The notes beneath the pieces are model-generated. The model did not search any database, had not been told where the DNA came from, and worked only from the letters and a program-made list of their open reading frames with translations. A DNA stretch of 64,000 nucleotides. It comes from a virus. Below are positions 25,134 to 40,848 of this stretch, piece by piece (position 1 is the first letter of the stretch; each line of letters begins with the position of its first letter). A program made the translations under genes and the position numbers. Where the stretch lies: IMG/VR virus record IMGVR_UViG_3300024346_000010. One strand, given 5' to 3'.

Positions 25134-25169
25134 TTTAAAAGTCACAGTATTAAAACTATAATATAGGGG

Positions 25170-25198
25170 TTTACTTAATCCATCCTTTATGTTAATAT
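25170..25198 (+). promoter_or_regulatory. Promoter for tmRNA
   Basis: TTTACT-N17-TAATAT. Confidence 0.6.
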
Positions 25199-25202
25199 AT
25201 AA

Positions 25203-25595
25203 CCTGTAAACGTTGAAGCAACGTGGACACATTCTGGACCTGGGGGCGGTACCCAGCGACTCCACCATAAGGATACACAATGAAACAATATTCAAAAGAA
25301 TATTTAGAGTTTGAACTGAAACACACTAAAGAGTTGGTAGAACTTCATCATAACACAAGAGATGAAGAATTGAGACTTCAAATTTTAGAAGTTAGAAAAA
25401 CTCTTGAGCGTATCTTTTTGATGGGGTCGAAATTAGGATCGACAGGTGTGAAAGTGAAAGTGGAGTTTACCGGATGACTGCGTTATTGGTCAATTAAACT
25501 AAATGCAAATGAAAATTTCGCACCTACAGGTTACGCCCTAGCGGCATAATGCTGGTGGGTATGAGCACCACCTAGAAACAGAACGGACTCGCAAC
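25203..25595 (+). ncRNA. ssrA: Circularly permuted two-piece tmRNA (alphaproteobacterial type)
   Basis: Acceptor piece ending CGACTCCACCA (25267); coding piece starting GGGGTCGAAATTAGGATCGAC (25423); G3:U70 pair; tag ANENFAPTGYALAA* at 25505-25549; outer ends approximate. Confidence 0.9.
25280..25477 (+). CDS. ORF within tmRNA intervening sequence
   Basis: TAAGGA RBS, 65 aa helical ORF running into the coding piece. Confidence 0.5.
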   Translation: MKQYSKEYLEFELKHTKELVELHHNTRDEELRLQILEVRKTLERIFLMGSKLGSTGVKVKVEFTG

Positions 25596-25619: not shown

Positions 25620-25955
25620 ATGAAAAATATTCTCTTGGCAACAGCCGCAACATTCGCTCTTACAACTTCTGCATTTGCAGCTGATCTAGGCTATGCCGGT
25701 GACGTTGAATATGATATTGAAACAGAAACAGCTGCACTTGAATTTGGACCAGCACTTTCAATGGCCGGTTTCCTAGTTGAACCAAAAATGCACGCAGGTG
25801 CTACATTTACAGACGGCGCAACAGTAAACTTTACTGGTGTATCTGCAAAAGCAACATACGGCGTAACTGCTAATGTTTCTGTATATGGTACAGTATCAGC
25901 TGACAAAGACTTTAAATACGACACAGCAACAGTTGGTGTTGGCTTTAACTTCTAA
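25620..25955 (+). CDS. Small outer-membrane beta-barrel protein
   Basis: Signal peptide (..SAFA), alternating beta strands, C-terminal GVGFNF. Confidence 0.75.
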   Translation: MKNILLATAATFALTTSAFAADLGYAGDVEYDIETETAALEFGPALSMAGFLVEPKMHAGATFTDGATVNFTGVSAKATYGVTANVSVYGTVSADKDFKYDTATVGVGFNF

Positions 25956-26029: not shown

Positions 26030-26037
26030 CATAAATA
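26030..26037 (+). promoter_or_regulatory. T4-type late promoter variant
   Basis: CATAAATA; similar boxes at 5658, 6306, 7962, 39542, 43207, 57362. Confidence 0.55.
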
Positions 26038-26066
26038 TGAATGTTATTATATTATAGGACTATGCT

Positions 26067-26624
26067 ATGTTTAAAAAATTACTAATTGCAGTGCCATTGA
26101 TTCTTGCTTACTCTTTAGCAGTTGCTGAACCAATTGTTACTGAATCCACAACTGATAGTACTGTTACTTCGAATTCGAATTCAACTACAACTGTCAAAAC
26201 TGCACCACCATCAGCAATTTCACCTTCGATCAATACATCGAATAGTGACACATGTACGATCGGTGTTTCAGGCGCGGTTCAAACACAAATTCTTGGTATC
26301 TCTGCTGGTAAAACAGTTCGTGATATGAATTGTGAACGACTCAAAAATGCAAAAACTTTATATGACATGGGCATGAAAGTTGCTGCCGTGTCTGTTATGT
26401 GTCAAGATTCTAGAATCTTTGATGCTATGATGGATGCTGGCACACCTTGCCCATATGATGGAATGATTGGCGATGCTGCTAAGGAAGCTTGGAAACTAGA
26501 TGAGGGTAAACAACCATCAAATGTAAAACGAAGCACTATTCTGAAAGATATGGATGAAGATGATAAAAGCACTCTTAAAGGTGCCGCTGGTGTTGGTGGC
26601 CTCTTACTCTTATTGCTACTCTGA
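26067..26624 (+). CDS. Secreted Cys-containing protein with hydrophobic C-terminus
   Basis: Signal peptide, PPSAISP, C..GVSGAVQ, NCERLK, GTPCP, C-terminal LLLLLLL. Confidence 0.75.
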   Translation: MFKKLLIAVPLILAYSLAVAEPIVTESTTDSTVTSNSNSTTTVKTAPPSAISPSINTSNSDTCTIGVSGAVQTQILGISAGKTVRDMNCERLKNAKTLYDMGMKVAAVSVMCQDSRIFDAMMDAGTPCPYDGMIGDAAKEAWKLDEGKQPSNVKRSTILKDMDEDDKSTLKGAAGVGGLLLLLLL

Positions 26625-27447
26625 AGTCATAACCGGACAAACCAATAACGCTACTAGCAATGGTTACAGTTGGAATATGGCTGATATATTACCGCCCGAG
26701 GCTGGTATAGAGGTTAGTGGTGTATTTCATCGTTATACTATAACGAAAGATCCATCTACTGATGCCACTGTTGTTATTCGTAATGAAGACGCAATAAATG
26801 GTGGTTATGTATACGAGAGAAACGATAGCTGGGATCAGTTACCCGGAAATACTAAAGTTGGATTTGATCCGATGATTACTAACATTCCAGGTAATAGATG
26901 GGGGCCTGGGGAAATATTTGTGAATGGTGATGGCACAATTAGTGATGCCAATATATCATACACATATCAGTTTGATACTTGTTACAATCCTTTATTAGAT
27001 CCAAGCTGTGATGGATATTTTGATTCTATGTATCAATATTTGTTAGATAATGGGCTTTTAGGCACTATTGATTATGATGATCCATATTATGATGAATTCG
27101 TACAAAGATATTTAGAAGAAAATGCAGAAACCGACCTTGAAGAAACTGAAATTCAAGAAGAAGTGATTACCGAAGAAGAAGAAACTGAAGAAAGATCGTT
27201 GGAAGAGGTGTTAGCTATTACAGGCGCTGCAGAATCGATCGGCGATGCAGCTCAGCAACAAGCTGCTATGGCACAATTAACTAATAGTATTCAATTTACT
27301 CCTTATTATAGCGTCACTATTCAAGGAGGAAAATACGAAGATTCTTTATCATTTGAAGATAAAGATATTCCCGACAACAGAAAAGCATTGAGCAATTTGG
27401 CAAGTCAACAATTGCATAGGGATATGGTTCGTTTACAATATGATTAA
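26560..27447 (+). CDS. Secreted protein with acidic linker
   Basis: Signal-like N-terminus, beta-rich domain, C..P..DPSC, Glu-rich stalk. Confidence 0.7.
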   Translation: MIKALLKVPLVLVASYSYCYSEVITGQTNNATSNGYSWNMADILPPEAGIEVSGVFHRYTITKDPSTDATVVIRNEDAINGGYVYERNDSWDQLPGNTKVGFDPMITNIPGNRWGPGEIFVNGDGTISDANISYTYQFDTCYNPLLDPSCDGYFDSMYQYLLDNGLLGTIDYDDPYYDEFVQRYLEENAETDLEETEIQEEVITEEEETEERSLEEVLAITGAAESIGDAAQQQAAMAQLTNSIQFTPYYSVTIQGGKYEDSLSFEDKDIPDNRKALSNLASQQLHRDMVRLQYD

Positions 27448-27472
27448 TAAGATAAACAATCGGAGAACTAAA

Positions 27473-27970
27473 ATGTTCAATACAAAAACACTTACAGTGG
27501 CGTTTTCGCTATTAGCATCTGCAAGCTTTGCAAATGTTAATATTACGGGCACAGTTCAGTCTAAATGTTCTGTTCATACTGAAACTCAGGGCGTATATGG
27601 TAACCCTACCGCCGACAAACTAAGCACTGCATCTGCAGATGGCGGCGTTGTTCCTCGTATTCGCTACGATGTTTCATTAGCTGATAGCTATATCGCAAAA
27701 ATCTCGTACCCGACATCATTCTCATCATCACCAACTTTGAATGATGTTGTTAACTGGACTGGTACTGTTGCGGTAGATAAAGTTACAGATCCATTAATGT
27801 CAGCATATGAAACAAATAAAGTCGTATACGATAGCACAACCGAATACGATATGACAATTGCCGGTAGCACATGGTTCACTATTGAATCCTCTGCCGAATA
27901 CGGATATAATCAGGCTCTTCCAGGCGGTAACTATACTGCTATCGTAGAAGCCGAATGTATCGCAAAGTAA
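27473..27970 (+). CDS. Fimbrial major-subunit-like secreted protein
   Basis: Signal peptide, VNITGTVQSKCSV, C-terminal LPGGNYTAIVEAEC. Confidence 0.55.
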   Translation: MFNTKTLTVAFSLLASASFANVNITGTVQSKCSVHTETQGVYGNPTADKLSTASADGGVVPRIRYDVSLADSYIAKISYPTSFSSSPTLNDVVNWTGTVAVDKVTDPLMSAYETNKVVYDSTTEYDMTIAGSTWFTIESSAEYGYNQALPGGNYTAIVEAECIAK

Positions 27971-27971
27971 T

Positions 27972-28343
27972 ATGAAGTATGTGATAGGGATATTGTTGGG
28001 GCTGTCTGGTGCAGCAAATGCTCATGAGATGGTTCCAGCTTATCCTACTATGAAACCGTCTTATATATCAGGCGTGTCAGTAACAAGTATGAAATTATTT
28101 AATAGAAGAGATGATGTTAGATATTATGAGATTGGTGTGTTTACGAGTGAATGGAAGCCAATTGCGTTTGCTTCAGAAGAAAAGATTATAAAGTTAGAGT
28201 ATTTAGGAAAAAAGACCTTTGAGGTTTATATCCGCAATAGTGATTTAGATGATGCTACCTATATTTGCACCTTATCTAAATTAGAAAAGGACAATGTTCG
28301 AACTACAGGAGTATCCTCTAAAATATGTTCGAAAATAAAGTGA
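27972..28343 (+). CDS. PapD-like (Ig-fold) pilus chaperone-like protein
   Basis: Signal peptide, HEMVPAYP, MKLFNRR....YYEI, YICT, ICS. Confidence 0.5.
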   Translation: MKYVIGILLGLSGAANAHEMVPAYPTMKPSYISGVSVTSMKLFNRRDDVRYYEIGVFTSEWKPIAFASEEKIIKLEYLGKKTFEVYIRNSDLDDATYICTLSKLEKDNVRTTGVSSKICSKIK

Positions 28344-28352
28344 GGCAAAAAT

Positions 28353-28739
28353 GTGAGATATTTTATTATTTTTATGTTAATGGCAACATGCGCATATGGT
28401 GATTCAAGTTCAATAAGTTTAGGCTTACCTTCAATGCCACAAAACTATCAATCTGATAAGTTTAGGGCCGGAGAACTTGATTGCTCAAATGCTATTGGGT
28501 CAGCAACTAATATGGAATTTGGCGTGACTGGTACTGTTGAACAAGGCGGAGCCTTTGGAAATGATACGCCCGGTGATGTTGGAGTCTATGCCAGAATTGT
28601 CATACCTCTTGGCAAAAGAGTTAAGAGTAGAATTGATTGTAATAGACTATATGAATTAGAACTAAAAAAGAAACAACTCGAAGTTTTAAAACTCGAAGCA
28701 GAGTTAAAACAACTTAGAGAATTACAATTTGAAAATTAA
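28353..28739 (+). CDS. Secreted beta-hairpin plus coiled-coil protein
   Basis: Signal peptide, LDCS, GVYARIVIPLG, DCNRLYELEL coiled coil. Confidence 0.65.
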   Translation: MRYFIIFMLMATCAYGDSSSISLGLPSMPQNYQSDKFRAGELDCSNAIGSATNMEFGVTGTVEQGGAFGNDTPGDVGVYARIVIPLGKRVKSRIDCNRLYELELKKKQLEVLKLEAELKQLRELQFEN

Positions 28740-28787: not shown

Positions 28788-29504
28788 ATGACTATAGATC
28801 GCTCAGCACACTTTGCCCATATGGCAGAGCTTGCGTATAAAGATGGTAAAGAAGCCAAACCTAATTTTAAAAAGTTAGGCTACACCTATCATAAGTTCAT
28901 CGACATTGACTGCGCACAGGTACATGTGTGCTGGAACAAAACTGAAATGGTTCTTGCTTTCCGTGGCACAGAACCGGGCGAGTTTTCTGATATTAAAGCA
29001 GATCTCAACGCATTCCCAGACCGAGCCCAAGTTGGTGGTTGGGTACACAACGGATTTCAAACTGAATTAGAAAAAGTATGGCAAGATGTTTTAAAAGTTA
29101 TGGGTGACAAACTTGGTTCCCGTAAACTATACATCTGTGGACATTCGTTAGGCGGCGCAATGGCAACTATTGCGGCTTCTCGACTAAATCCACATGCGTT
29201 GTACACATATGGATCACCTAGAGTGGGAACTAAAAAGTTCGTTAAGAATATTACATGCAAGCATTACAGGCATGTTAATAATAATGATATTGTTCCAAAG
29301 GTTCCATTTGCTTTTCTTGGTTATAGACATCATGGAGAGCTTCAATATATTAATTTCTACGGTAACATCCGTAAAATGACATCATGGCAGAGATTCAAAG
29401 ACGGTTTCAGAGGACGTCGCGCTGCTTGGAAAAATAAACAACCATTTGATGGCGCCCGTGATCACGGCATGTCCAATTATATAAAATACTTGGAGAAAGA
29501 ATAA
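28788..29504 (+). CDS. Class 3 lipase
   Basis: AFRGT, VHNGF, GHSLGGA, TYGSPRVG, DIVPKVP, final H. Confidence 0.9.
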   Translation: MTIDRSAHFAHMAELAYKDGKEAKPNFKKLGYTYHKFIDIDCAQVHVCWNKTEMVLAFRGTEPGEFSDIKADLNAFPDRAQVGGWVHNGFQTELEKVWQDVLKVMGDKLGSRKLYICGHSLGGAMATIAASRLNPHALYTYGSPRVGTKKFVKNITCKHYRHVNNNDIVPKVPFAFLGYRHHGELQYINFYGNIRKMTSWQRFKDGFRGRRAAWKNKQPFDGARDHGMSNYIKYLEKE

Positions 29505-29956
29505 TGCCTAACGAGTATAAAGTAAAAGTTTTAAAGATCGTCGACGGCGACACTGTAGACGTGGATATTGATCTTGGGTTCGGTATCGTGCTCACGGACG
29601 AGCGCGTACGAATAGTTGGCATCGACACCCCAGAATCACGTACGTCAAATAAAGTTGAGAAGATCTTTGGACTTGTATCAAAGAATAGATTGAAGCAGCT
29701 ATTAGAAAAAGAAGCAATCCTAATCACATTCGATGATAAGAATGGTGAAGACATGAAGGGTAAGTTTGGTCGTGTGCTCGGTGACTTTAAATGCGGTGAC
29801 ACTACTGTATCTAAAGTGCTGATTGAAGAAGGACACGCTGTTCCATATCACGGTCAAAACAAAGCAGATGTTGAAATTGCTCACCTTGCAAACCGTAACA
29901 GACTAATGCAAGAAGGTGTAGTTGATCCTGCGGAAGTACAGGCGGCTGACAAATGA
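29504..29956 (+). CDS. Thermonuclease (SNase-like)
   Basis: VDGDT, RIVGIDTPE, GKFGRVL. Confidence 0.85.
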   Translation: MPNEYKVKVLKIVDGDTVDVDIDLGFGIVLTDERVRIVGIDTPESRTSNKVEKIFGLVSKNRLKQLLEKEAILITFDDKNGEDMKGKFGRVLGDFKCGDTTVSKVLIEEGHAVPYHGQNKADVEIAHLANRNRLMQEGVVDPAEVQAADK

Positions 29957-30234
29957 TTTGGGATATGGTAGAAAGGATGGCTAGTGACAGATTATGGATC
30001 TATACAAGCATTGCTGGCAGTATTGCTGGTGCTATGGTATTGGCTTATCTTAGCACTACACGAATCGGGTTATGGGGATATGCTCAATTCGATAGAGCAG
30101 TGGATTATCTCGTGGATCGTTGGGGACTAACTTGGTTAGAACAACCTGAAGATGCATGGAGAAAGAAATACCCAAAGATAACAAAGAAAATAGATGAATT
30201 GGAGGCAAGAATCAATGAACTGGATAAAAAGTAG
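29953..30234 (+). CDS. Small membrane protein
   Basis: One TM segment, coiled C-terminus. Confidence 0.65.
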   Translation: MIWDMVERMASDRLWIYTSIAGSIAGAMVLAYLSTTRIGLWGYAQFDRAVDYLVDRWGLTWLEQPEDAWRKKYPKITKKIDELEARINELDKK

Positions 30235-30370
30235 ATTAGTAGAAAGAACGTCTCTGGATGGCGTAGTGTTGATCGGATGTGGTATCGCTATGATCCTAGC
30301 ACCCCTTAATCTTATCGCGTATGGCATGATCGCATACGGCGCTTGGACACTGTTGAAAGGTGAGAAGTAA
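30215..30370 (+). CDS. Small membrane protein (51 aa)
   Basis: GGAGG RBS; MNWIKSRLVERTSLDGVVLIGCGIAMILAPLNLIAYGMIAYGAWTLLKGEK. Confidence 0.6.
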   Translation: MNWIKSRLVERTSLDGVVLIGCGIAMILAPLNLIAYGMIAYGAWTLLKGEK

Positions 30371-30714
30371 TGACTGAGGAAACAAAGGTCGCAAAAGAAT
30401 ATCATCCGGCTGACACCAACGGAGACGGTCATGTGTCTGCTGAAGAAGAAGCAATGTATCTTGAGTTCAAACGAAAGGAACTTGAAGATGCTGATGCTAT
30501 GCGTGATGCCCAAAGAAACATGACATGGTTTGCTCTAGGCGGACTATTACTATATCCATTTGCTGTTGTTCTTGCTTACATGGTGGGACTTGACTCGGCT
30601 GGTCAAATATTAGGCAATATGGCAGCAACATACTTTGTTTCGGTTGCTGGTATCGTGGCAGCATTCTTTGGCTCACAAGCATATGCTAAAAGCTCAGCTT
30701 CAAAACCTAAGTAA
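30370..30714 (+). CDS. EF-hand plus 2-TM membrane protein (holin-like)
   Basis: DTNGDGHVSAEE EF-hand loop, two TM helices. Confidence 0.6.
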   Translation: MTEETKVAKEYHPADTNGDGHVSAEEEAMYLEFKRKELEDADAMRDAQRNMTWFALGGLLLYPFAVVLAYMVGLDSAGQILGNMAATYFVSVAGIVAAFFGSQAYAKSSASKPK

Positions 30715-30723
30715 GGAAAGAAC

Positions 30724-31278
30724 ATGGCAGAGTTTGAATTTGGCGGAATGACTTTTCGAGGTGGTAAGATGGCGGTTGTACTAACGGCGCTGTCTACTGC
30801 AGGTGGAGCTTTGTGGGGTGGTTTTGAGTTCTATAAAGACTATGTTGATATGAAAGAAGTCGTACAGAATATCGACATAGATAAAATTAAAGCAGAGAAT
30901 GCATTAGTGCAAACAAAACTTGACGGAGCAATTGACTATACTCGCGATATTAAAGATGGCTTGCGTGATGATTTACTTAAGCTTGAACAAGCAGTAGATC
31001 GCATGGAAGATAAAGTAGACGAATCTGAAAATCGCGTTAAAGATGCCCAAGATAATATTGAACAAACGCTTGAAGGTATTCGCACTGAAATGAATCAGGT
31101 ACAAAAAGATGTAACAGCATCTATACGAGAAGTAGAAAAGACTATTAGAGAGTCAGAAAAAGATGTTCGTGACACAATGCGTGAGACGGAAACTCGTATA
31201 GATACTGATATGAGACAGCTTGATAAAGATATAAAAGAAGTCTTACAGGAAGCATTAGATAACCCATTGAACAATTAA
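30724..31278 (+). CDS. Membrane-anchored coiled-coil protein
   Basis: N-terminal TM, 11-residue amphipathic repeats. Confidence 0.65.
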   Translation: MAEFEFGGMTFRGGKMAVVLTALSTAGGALWGGFEFYKDYVDMKEVVQNIDIDKIKAENALVQTKLDGAIDYTRDIKDGLRDDLLKLEQAVDRMEDKVDESENRVKDAQDNIEQTLEGIRTEMNQVQKDVTASIREVEKTIRESEKDVRDTMRETETRIDTDMRQLDKDIKEVLQEALDNPLNN

Positions 31279-39541: not shown

Positions 39542-39549
39542 TATAAATA
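39542..39549 (+). promoter_or_regulatory. T4 late promoter
   Basis: Exact TATAAATA. Confidence 0.75.
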
Positions 39550-39570: not shown

Positions 39571-40848
39571 ATGCTAAAAACTGTACGTGATATTAATACA
39601 AAAAACCAAAGGGAATTTAAATCCTATCTTAAGAGAACCTTAAGTGGTGTTAAGATGGGGGAATCTTCCCGTAAGGGTTATCATATTCGGTTTGCTCTAG
39701 ATCCATCACAGTTCGATACATATTTTAAGAAATATAATTTAGAAATTGTAGACTATCCAGGGCCTTCTATTTCCGATAAGTTTGAGACTTATGTGTTGAT
39801 CGCCACTGCTGATCTAGGCTCTAACGTACCATATGGAACTATGATACCATACGTAAATAATTACATTGGTGCAGCAAAAGGCGGACCTTTACTTTTTAAT
39901 AATAAAGATCTCAGCCCTGACAATTTAGGATTTGCCGGTAAGACATTGGCTGAAGGCGAAATGATCCGTCAGCTCAAGGAGGTTTTATATAAGAGATATG
40001 ATGCAGAAATTGCTGATCAACTAATGGATCTTGCATATGCAGCTATGAAAGGTGATGACAATCCTTCTGTAAAAGTCACATTTTCTGCGAAAGATCTTGC
40101 TAAAGTATCTGCAGACTATGGCGAACTTCTAAGTGCTCTTTGGGCTATGAAGAAGTTAAACTTTAAAAAGTCCTTTTTTCCGACTGCTAGTAATGAGCCT
40201 CTGATCGACATATACGGGATTCGCTTTGGCGTACACTACCCAATTTCTGTTAAGTCTGGCGGCGGCGGTAAGGTAACTATTCAGAATATTATTAACGCTA
40301 TTGAAAATAGGGCCAAAAAAGCTAATACGGTAGACTTAGATAAAGAACCATCCTTACAGATCTTTAAGATGGTCAATGAGCTACCGATGAAAGAGCAGAT
40401 GATCCAGCTGCATAAGTACCGTGAAACAGATGCTATACAAAAACTTAGTGAGATTACCGGTATCAAAGTTAAGGATATGGATCTAGCTTCTCTTAAAAAG
40501 TTTACGGATGATAAAACTAACGATGAGCTGATCCAACTACTGGGTCCTTTCTGGAAGGTCCTAAATATGAATCTAACAGAAGGTGTGAAGCAGGGTCAAG
40601 ATAAGCTCCGCTTGATTATATCACCGCTGGGAGAATCAATCTGGAAAATTTTAAATAGTGATAAAGAAATAAAAGAATCGTTAATCCGTATTGCCAGACA
40701 AGTTACTTTGATCCAGGTAAATGTTGATGTTCGTAAAACAGGCATCACATTTCAAAGTAATTACTTTAGAGACGCAGAGTTTGAGTTTGCCTGGGCAGGA
40801 TATACCGCTGGTAACAAACTAGGATTCAAGATGAAGGTAAAACAATAA
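39571..40848 (+). CDS. Late hypothetical protein, possible PD-(D/E)xK nuclease fold
   Basis: YGE, FP..SNEPLID, ISVKSGGG. Confidence 0.5.
   Translation: MLKTVRDINTKNQREFKSYLKRTLSGVKMGESSRKGYHIRFALDPSQFDTYFKKYNLEIVDYPGPSISDKFETYVLIATADLGSNVPYGTMIPYVNNYIGAAKGGPLLFNNKDLSPDNLGFAGKTLAEGEMIRQLKEVLYKRYDAEIADQLMDLAYAAMKGDDNPSVKVTFSAKDLAKVSADYGELLSALWAMKKLNFKKSFFPTASNEPLIDIYGIRFGVHYPISVKSGGGGKVTIQNIINAIENRAKKANTVDLDKEPSLQIFKMVNELPMKEQMIQLHKYRETDAIQKLSEITGIKVKDMDLASLKKFTDDKTNDELIQLLGPFWKVLNMNLTEGVKQGQDKLRLIISPLGESIWKILNSDKEIKESLIRIARQVTLIQVNVDVRKTGITFQSNYFRDAEFEFAWAGYTAGNKLGFKMKVKQ

Follow-up and report, generated by a model that had tools for sequence, protein, structure and literature searches.

A conserved six-gene module of marine phages that very probably encodes an exported, late envelope complex with PapD-like and immunoglobulin-like members

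Small exported proteins of phages are easily overlooked when no family model recognises them. Here we describe a cluster of such genes in a stretch of viral DNA of 64,000 nucleotides (nt), referred to as the window, from the IMG/VR virus record IMGVR_UViG_3300024346_000010. The window is part of a contig of 114 kb with a CheckV completeness of 67%; the large open reading frames (ORFs) of the contig all lie on the plus strand and its GC content is about 38%. A previous reading of the bare sequence (the original prediction) had described five tightly packed ORFs, g1 to g5, behind a late promoter box and had taken them for a minimal fimbrial or pilus assembly operon. The five ORFs are present and closely spaced. 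The reading frames of g1 and g2 share 71 nt, and gaps of 25, 1 and 9 nt separate g2 from g3, g3 from g4 and g4 from g5. As an operon of five, however, the description was incomplete. The five genes are real, and the conserved unit has six members, the sixth of which, g11, had been overlooked (Table 1). We consider it very probable that these genes form a conserved, late module which is confined to phages and which encodes six exported envelope proteins, among them a PapD-like domain and an immunoglobulin (Ig)-like subunit.

Table 1. Coordinates of the module, its promoter-like box and its insert (positions refer to the window)
Feature	Position	Strand	Remarks
Late-promoter-like box (CATAAATA), T4-type	26030-26037	+	29 nt 5' of g1 start
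g1	26067-26624	+	185 amino acids (aa)
g2	26554-27447	+	297 aa
g3	27473-27970	+	165 aa; GGAG 9 nt before ATG
g4	27972-28343	+	123 aa
g5	28353-28739	+	128 aa
Insert between g5 and g11	28788-30714	+	lipase, staphylococcal-nuclease-like nuclease, three small membrane proteins
g11, sixth conserved member	30724-31278	+	based on translation, presence in relatives, alignment

The proteins of the window were compared with 127 fetched loci by tblastn. In more than 100 of them g1 to g5 are found in the same order and orientation, at 30-77% identity and between flanks that vary, which is well beyond what chance would give. Homologues of g11 (E<=1.6e-14) are present in all 82 loci with at least 3 kb of sequence after g5. 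In these relatives g11 directly follows g5 and starts a median of 76 nt behind it, unlike in the window, where an insert of about 2 kb splits the two genes. These families abound in ocean metagenomes. Among 90% clusters, g3 has 2214 relatives, 0 of them with a Pfam domain or an informative name, and g1 was confirmed on at least 592 of the 600 IMG/VR stretches listed. In GTDB, the g1 family occurs only on contigs of taxonomically scattered metagenome-assembled genomes, a pattern that fits binned phage DNA and a family restricted to phages. A bacterial origin of g1 was considered and is unsupported, since these scattered contigs are its only carriers. Pfam and NCBIfam gave no match for g1 to g5, and PHROGs gave only families of unknown function (phrog_20531 for g1 and phrog_37374 for g5). 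Megablast and tblastn searches of GenBank phages with g3 and g5 were without match, profile searches of PDB sequences with the family alignments of g1 to g5 found nothing, and literature searches found no published description of the module.

Parts of the module are shared with cultured phages. g1, g11 and, more weakly, the C-terminal part of g2 also occur in phages of SAR11 and Roseobacter; the g1 domain is found in cultured pelagiphages, roseophages and RSP15. Local profile searches detected g11-like genes near g1-like genes in HTVC115P (gp49, 128.8 bits), CRP-207 (45 bits), CRP-810 (34.7 bits) and, weakly, Mosig (18.9 bits). In HTVC115P the g1-like gene is followed by gp53 (466 aa), and the C-terminus of this protein weakly matches the C-terminal third of g2 (19.5 bits). 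Variant IMG/VR loci without g3 to g5 consist of g1, a protein of 526 or 914 aa and a closing g11, and both intervening proteins end in a motif of the LAQQxLHxxMVxxQY type, as g2 does. The cultured-phage cores and the variant loci together identify g1, the C-terminal motif of g2 and g11 as a constant frame. The region between g1 and g11 differs from one phage lineage to another and is exchangeable, g3-g4-g5 being one widespread insert. Two of the cultured g11-family members, CRP-810 gp51 (L128:4204-4626) and CRP-207 gp73 (L169:3292-3873), are named 'lysozyme' or 'putative lysozyme' in GenBank. They match the g11 family at the scores given above and have no lysozyme Pfam domain, and thus these labels look wrong.

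The box in front of g1 follows directly on the hairpin and T-run that terminate the upstream gene. Within the window the octamer CATAAATA is seen 7 times versus 5.7 times expected, which rules it out as a motif enriched there. Of 89 distinct relatives, 44 (49%) have NATAAATA, mostly in the form TATAAATA, in the 120 nt before g1, compared with 2.3% of background windows. In front of g3 the motif occurs in 8 of 87 relatives, and in front of g2, g4 or g5 hardly ever. This distribution makes a single late transcription unit plausible. The late box that had been predicted is therefore retained for its position and for the enrichment of NATAAATA across relatives, and given up as an octamer enriched in the window. 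In the 64-kb window an exact TATAAATA occurs just once, at 39542-39549, 22 nt before an ORF at 39571 and at the start of the block of structural genes; otherwise the octamer is strongly under-represented (1 seen versus 7.4 expected).

Export signals were assessed by a crude heuristic, not SignalP, which asks for a hydrophobic 9-mer in the first 35 residues and small residues at -3/-1. It is passed by 32 of 35, 54 of 56, 45 of 47, 50 of 51 and 42 of 47 homologues of g1, g2, g3, g4 and g5, respectively, and not by the cytoplasmic controls DNA polymerase, helicase and ribonucleotide reductase. Family alignments of the mature parts show 4, 2, 2, 2 and 2 conserved cysteines in g1 to g5. The signal peptides and the paired cysteines that had been claimed for all five proteins are both borne out, the former as export-like N-termini across the families by this heuristic. 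The mature N-termini are conserved as well: E-x-[VI]-[YF]-G-x-T in g2, V-P-I-x-G-x-V in g3, H-E-x-T-P-T-Y-P in g4 and SSS-L-N-L-x-L-P in g5.

A structural model of g4 was built from an alignment of 51 sequences (predicted local distance difference test, pLDDT, 90.2). Foldseek returned 45 PDB matches at E<=1e-3, nearly all of them from the PapD-like superfamily, including the chaperones DraB, FaeE, PapD, SafB, Caf1M, FimC and SfaE and also MSP, VAP and ASH domains. The PapD-like fold is supported by two independent aligners, and chaperone-usher chaperones top the results of both. On the evidence of its model, g4 is a one-domain PapD-like (MSP-fold) Ig protein, as the single Ig-fold chaperone-like protein of the original prediction would have it. 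Homologues of g4 are 108-145 aa long, about 105 aa when mature, and the alignment of the model covers no more of the chaperones than residues 1 to about 114-129. g4 is without a second chaperone domain, and a search for relatives of 236-2000 aa found none, which is weak evidence. A cysteine pair, C99/C119, is conserved. A search of BFVD with g4 gave no named viral relative. Residue 18 of g4, the first of the mature protein, is histidine in 51 of 51 homologues (A/HE[MWF]TPTYP, cleaved at the stroke). A copper 'histidine brace' was considered and rejected: there is no second invariant histidine, and matches to lytic polysaccharide monooxygenases and copper proteins are poor (root-mean-square deviation 6.5-6.8 A).

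The AlphaFold2 model of g3 (pLDDT 92.9) is an Ig-like beta-sandwich. Its best Foldseek matches are chaperone-usher pilins and archaeal donor-strand fibres, with E of about 1e-3 and template-modelling scores of 0.40-0.49; they include CfaB, the pilin domain of PapG, Caf1, CsuA/B and 9fy9_F, a type 1 pilus subunit chain of the FimD-tip complex. At such scores the assignment of g3 as a pilin subunit is a lead from modelling, not a finding. Of the pilin-like subunit proposed before, the Ig-like sandwich and the leading place of pilins among the structural matches stand, and membership in a fimbrial family does not. The cysteines C32 and C162 of g3 are invariant and its C-terminus is fixed as CIAx. 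The conserved mature N-terminus of g3 extends to V-P-I-x-G-x-V-x-S-K-C, and this conserved stretch is not part of the modelled strands. When g2, g3 and g4 were compared profile against profile, no relationship emerged.

In g1, the signal peptide is followed by a Thr/Ser-rich stretch, the sequence PPPSAISP, a very conserved four-cysteine domain, an acidic linker and a tail. The tail is an uncharged Gly/Leu C-terminus of 14-20 residues, first Gly-rich and then Leu-rich, with no basic residues at its end; NCBIfam gave no match to a signal of the GlyGly-CTERM or rhombosortase type. g2 has a conserved beta-rich N-domain with one cysteine pair, an acidic linker (about 30% Asp and Glu) and the conserved C-terminal motif LAQQxLHxxMVxSQY. 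It is the most divergent member, and its family ranges from 262 to 914 aa with large variable heads. The ESM Atlas model of g2 is poor (pLDDT 0.48) and its structural neighbours were uninformative. g5 continues from its conserved start into a putative beta-hairpin of alternating hydropathy (strands 54-62 and 76-86) which resembles membrane strands. The hairpin tip is hypervariable (12-36 residues), Cys44 and Cys96 lie at the base, and an amphipathic C-terminal helix ends in FEN. The hydrophobic tail of g1, the acidic linker of g2 and the hairpin plus helix of g5 agree with the C-terminally anchored protein, the adhesin-like protein with an acidic stalk and the beta-hairpin plus coiled-coil protein that had been predicted. 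The last 23 codons of g1 (26554-26624) are dual-coded with the signal peptide of g2. In the g1 frame they read as a Gly-rich segment, LLLLLLL and the stop, and the g2 frame closes with SYSYCYS ahead of the cleavage site. Homologues conserve both readings, with a median g1/g2 overlap of 71 nt in 108 loci.

In g11, an N-terminal transmembrane (TM) helix is followed by some 140 aa of charged coiled coil, and LDNPL stands at the C-terminus. In its C-terminal QxxLDNPL the residues Q, N, P and L are invariant, and the TM region is conserved too. Family matches are to generic coiled coils only. The predicted architecture of g11 is that of an inner-membrane spanin (i-spanin), a likeness of architecture and not of homology.

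As far as sequence features can tell, the six proteins fit a complex held together by edge strands and helices that would extend across the envelope, with g11 and g1 at the inner membrane and g5 at the outer. Through the module, the phage would equip the envelope of its host cell with a disulfide-bonded protein complex. g11 with its N-terminal TM helix and g1 with its C-terminal tail would anchor it at the inner membrane, and the coiled coil of g11 would span the periplasm. The amphipathic hairpin may take g5 to the outer membrane while the C-terminal helix of g5 pairs with g11. g4 could take up edge strands of g3 by beta-strand complementation, and perhaps also the strands at the conserved N-termini of g2 and g5. 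g2 would dock via its conserved C-terminal helix and display its variable head.

The i-spanin-like g11, together with a core shared with endolysin-adjacent modules of podoviruses, shifts the reading from a pilus to such an envelope-spanning device. Tentatively, and with less than even confidence, we favour a spanin-like function, in which the complex breaches or destabilises the outer membrane late in infection. It would be a lipoprotein-free, multi-protein equivalent of the spanins, with a usher-less fibre or adhesin as a close rival. This role is proposed because of the architecture of g11, the late timing, the core shared with lysis-adjacent modules of podophages and the strong prior expectation that phages of this kind require such a function. 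The PapD-like fold was counted in its favour as a domain that binds peptide strands. Envelope-remodelling genes around the module (class-3 lipase, Nol-like carbamoyltransferase, fatty-acid desaturase and UDP-glucose dehydrogenase) were counted likewise, as were the hairpin of g5 with its variable tip and basal disulfide, the uncharged tail of g1 and the lack of a canonical spanin family match for any member. A Peptidase_M15_3 gene comes directly after the g1-like module in HTVC023P, and in a myovirus locus (L006) a Peptidase_M15_4 gene comes after g11. Of ten ORFs that directly follow g11 in relatives, nine have no lysis-enzyme domain. With two M15 neighbours and nine loci without, the link of the module to lysis is suggestive, not established.

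Several points weigh against a spanin-like function, to which these nine ORFs also belong. Spanins make do with one or two small proteins, whereas the module has six. No lipobox cysteine is conserved in the signal-peptide region of any of the g1 to g5 alignments. Neither Peptidase_M15_3 (PF08291) nor T4-type lysozyme (PF00959) was found in the 114-kb record, whose completeness is 67%. The variable heads of g2 and the hypervariable loop of g5 resemble parts that are surface-exposed or target-specific. The likeness of g11 to i-spanins, as read from its sequence, is architectural only.

The closest alternative retains the idea of the original prediction, a phage-encoded fibre or adhesin without usher, and seems to us rather unlikely. 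g4 would then be a one-domain chaperone, g3, perhaps with g2 as the tip, would polymerise via N-terminal I-x-G-x-V/T donor strands, g5 would oligomerise as an outer-membrane conduit, and g1 and g11 would serve as base. Infected cells, or debris from them, would become sticky, for example for the 'sibling capture' proposed for the curli of pelagiphages. Such a fibre would account for the PapD-like g4, for which chaperone-usher chaperones come first in both structure searches, and for the pilins and archaeal donor-strand fibres that match g3 best. It would also suit the pilin-like termini of g3, with an N-terminal stretch outside the modelled strands and a strictly fixed C-terminus, the divergent g2 with variable head and acidic stalk, and the variable loop of g5. 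Among ESM clusters that bear a Pfam domain, the one nearest to g4 is PapD_N (0.83), no more than a lead. Moreover, the module sits in a hypervariable island of the kind that carries the curli secretion cluster in pelagimyophages (PMC7029224, PMC9599517).

Family searches and gene content argue against the fibre. Pfam gave no match for any of g1 to g5 and nothing consistent when the homologues of g2, g3 and g4 were scanned one by one; PapD_N (PF00345) matched neither g4 nor any of its 51 homologues. Six-frame searches of the 114-kb record for PapD_N, Usher, Fimbrial and SCPU were empty at E<=10, and when g4 was aligned to 11 PapD_N domains of E. coli K-12, hhalign returned a probability of 0.4%. 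At the sequence level, the module thus belongs to no fimbrial family in these searches. For the usher of the outer membrane (PF00577), a barrel protein of some 800 aa, no match was found at E<=10 in the record, 67% complete as it is, and none in the fetched flanks, and in more than 100 loci the module contains no usher-sized ORF. g4 is short of the second chaperone domain, without longer relatives in the search made for them, and the PapD-like fold is also used outside pili, as in MSP/VAP domains. No pilus system contains an equivalent of the i-spanin-like g11. Identity of the module with the pelagiphage curli cluster was rejected: CsgG (PF03783) and CsgF (PF10614) are absent from the genome, and CsgG also from five large related contigs. 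That lytic ocean myoviruses should encode a usher-less donor-strand fibre system, with g4 as chaperone of g3 and of a tip with variable head, built on an inner-membrane scaffold and exported through a new outer-membrane pore of hairpin and coiled coil, is improbable in our view. If true, the fibre would provide infected SAR11-like cells with an appendage absent from their genomes, which could serve aggregation or 'sibling capture'.

It is less probable still, and quite unlikely, that the complex acts in superinfection exclusion or receptor masking by binding or occluding outer-membrane receptors or periplasmic entry routes, so that competing phages are blocked or progeny are spared loss on debris. 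The export signals would put the proteins into the envelope as this requires, the variable g2 heads and g5 loop suggest a target specific to host or competitor, and the hypervariable island holds surface-modifying genes. The exclusion genes imm and sp of T4 are early genes, which makes the late promoter motif upstream of g1 the wrong timing. Furthermore, six proteins with anchors on both sides of the periplasm exceed the needs of known exclusion systems, and the core lies beside endolysins in two phages.

Just upstream of the module, 25620-25955 encodes an exported protein of 111 aa (about 90 mature residues) that alternates as strands do, has Phe at its C-terminus and resembles a subunit of a miniature outer-membrane barrel; a hairpin and T-run come after its gene. 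An outer-membrane pore, in which g5, alone or with this protein, imports nutrients or cofactors late in infection and the other proteins are accessory, as was similarly suggested for phage CsgG (PMC7029224), is very improbable, since despite the membrane-strand-like alternation of the g5 hairpin and the C-terminal Phe of the small exported protein it leaves g3, g4 and g11 unexplained, and among the fetched loci no more than 9-12 have the mini-barrel-like gene together with the module.

The surroundings of the module bear on its host. A permuted (two-piece) transfer-messenger RNA of alphaproteobacterial type lies at 25167-25593, a little further upstream, with matches to Rfam RF01849 (93.4 bits) and RF04321 (97.8 bits) and, according to ARAGORN, the tag ANENFAPTGYALAA. 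Its type indicates an alphaproteobacterial host. The DNA polymerase is of the T4 type, with 55% identity to Phage C48C1 and 47-49% to cyanomyoviruses. The carriers of the module are probably abundant uncultured marine T4-like phages with alphaproteobacterial hosts. In the insert behind g5, 28788-29956 holds the class-3 lipase (Pfam 2.5e-22) and the staphylococcal-nuclease-like gene (1.5e-11), both without signal peptide; this pair also follows g5 in a few relatives, such as L073 and L075. Farther on, 30370-30714 encodes a protein of 114 aa with an EF-hand-like loop (DTNGDGHVSAEE), two TM helices and no family match. Its gene stands directly before g11 here and in L103, and is found near the module in 54 of 127 loci.

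To our knowledge, no explanation has been given for how cultured phages of SAR11 and Roseobacter lyse the outer membrane. Were the module their missing equivalent of spanins, it would represent a new, lipoprotein-free way to breach the outer membrane of Gram-negative bacteria. If it is a fibre system, it would be the first chaperone-type pilus machinery in a lytic phage, of a new, minimal and usher-less design. For these abundant ocean proteins we found no name, Pfam family or paper. In either case, the module is directly testable, because cultured carriers of its core exist.

Among known systems, chaperone-free donor-strand fibres (the archaeal cannulae CanA, bundling pili and TasA) differ from the module in that scores are weak and sequence similarity is absent. 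Chaperone-usher pili (Pap, Fim, Saf, Caf and the archaic Csu) are alike in that the gene of a Sec-exported Ig-like subunit adjoins that of an exported PapD-fold protein, and the termini of g3 resemble those of their subunits, with I-x-G-x-V ahead of the first cysteine and G-x-Y-x-A-x-V in the last strand. In contrast to them, the module lacks an usher, has a one-domain instead of a two-domain chaperone-like protein and shows no detectable sequence or profile homology. The disulfide of g3 would link the first and last strands, the genes lie in a lytic phage behind a late promoter, and they are tied to the membrane-anchored g1 and g11, which pili lack. No published case of fibre machinery in phages comes closer than the curli cluster of pelagiphages. 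It is likewise a multi-gene exported set of marine SAR11-type phages, located in a hypervariable island between replication and structural genes, and may likewise confer a fibre or secretion capability that the host lacks. None of the six module proteins matches a curli family, however, and the folds found are Ig-like rather than amyloid repeat or CsgG. Spanins, finally, differ in that they have a lipoprotein partner, for which g1 to g5 offer no candidate, whereas the module comprises six proteins with Ig-like and PapD-like domains and without match at the family level. The two-component spanins (lambda Rz/Rz1, T4 PseT.3/PseT.2) resemble g11 in the N-terminal TM helix, the charged coiled coil and the conserved C-terminal motif, and the unimolecular spanin T1 gp11 resembles g1 in its C-terminal hydrophobic anchor. 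Like spanins, the module appears to be expressed late, and M15 endolysins are occasionally its direct neighbours.

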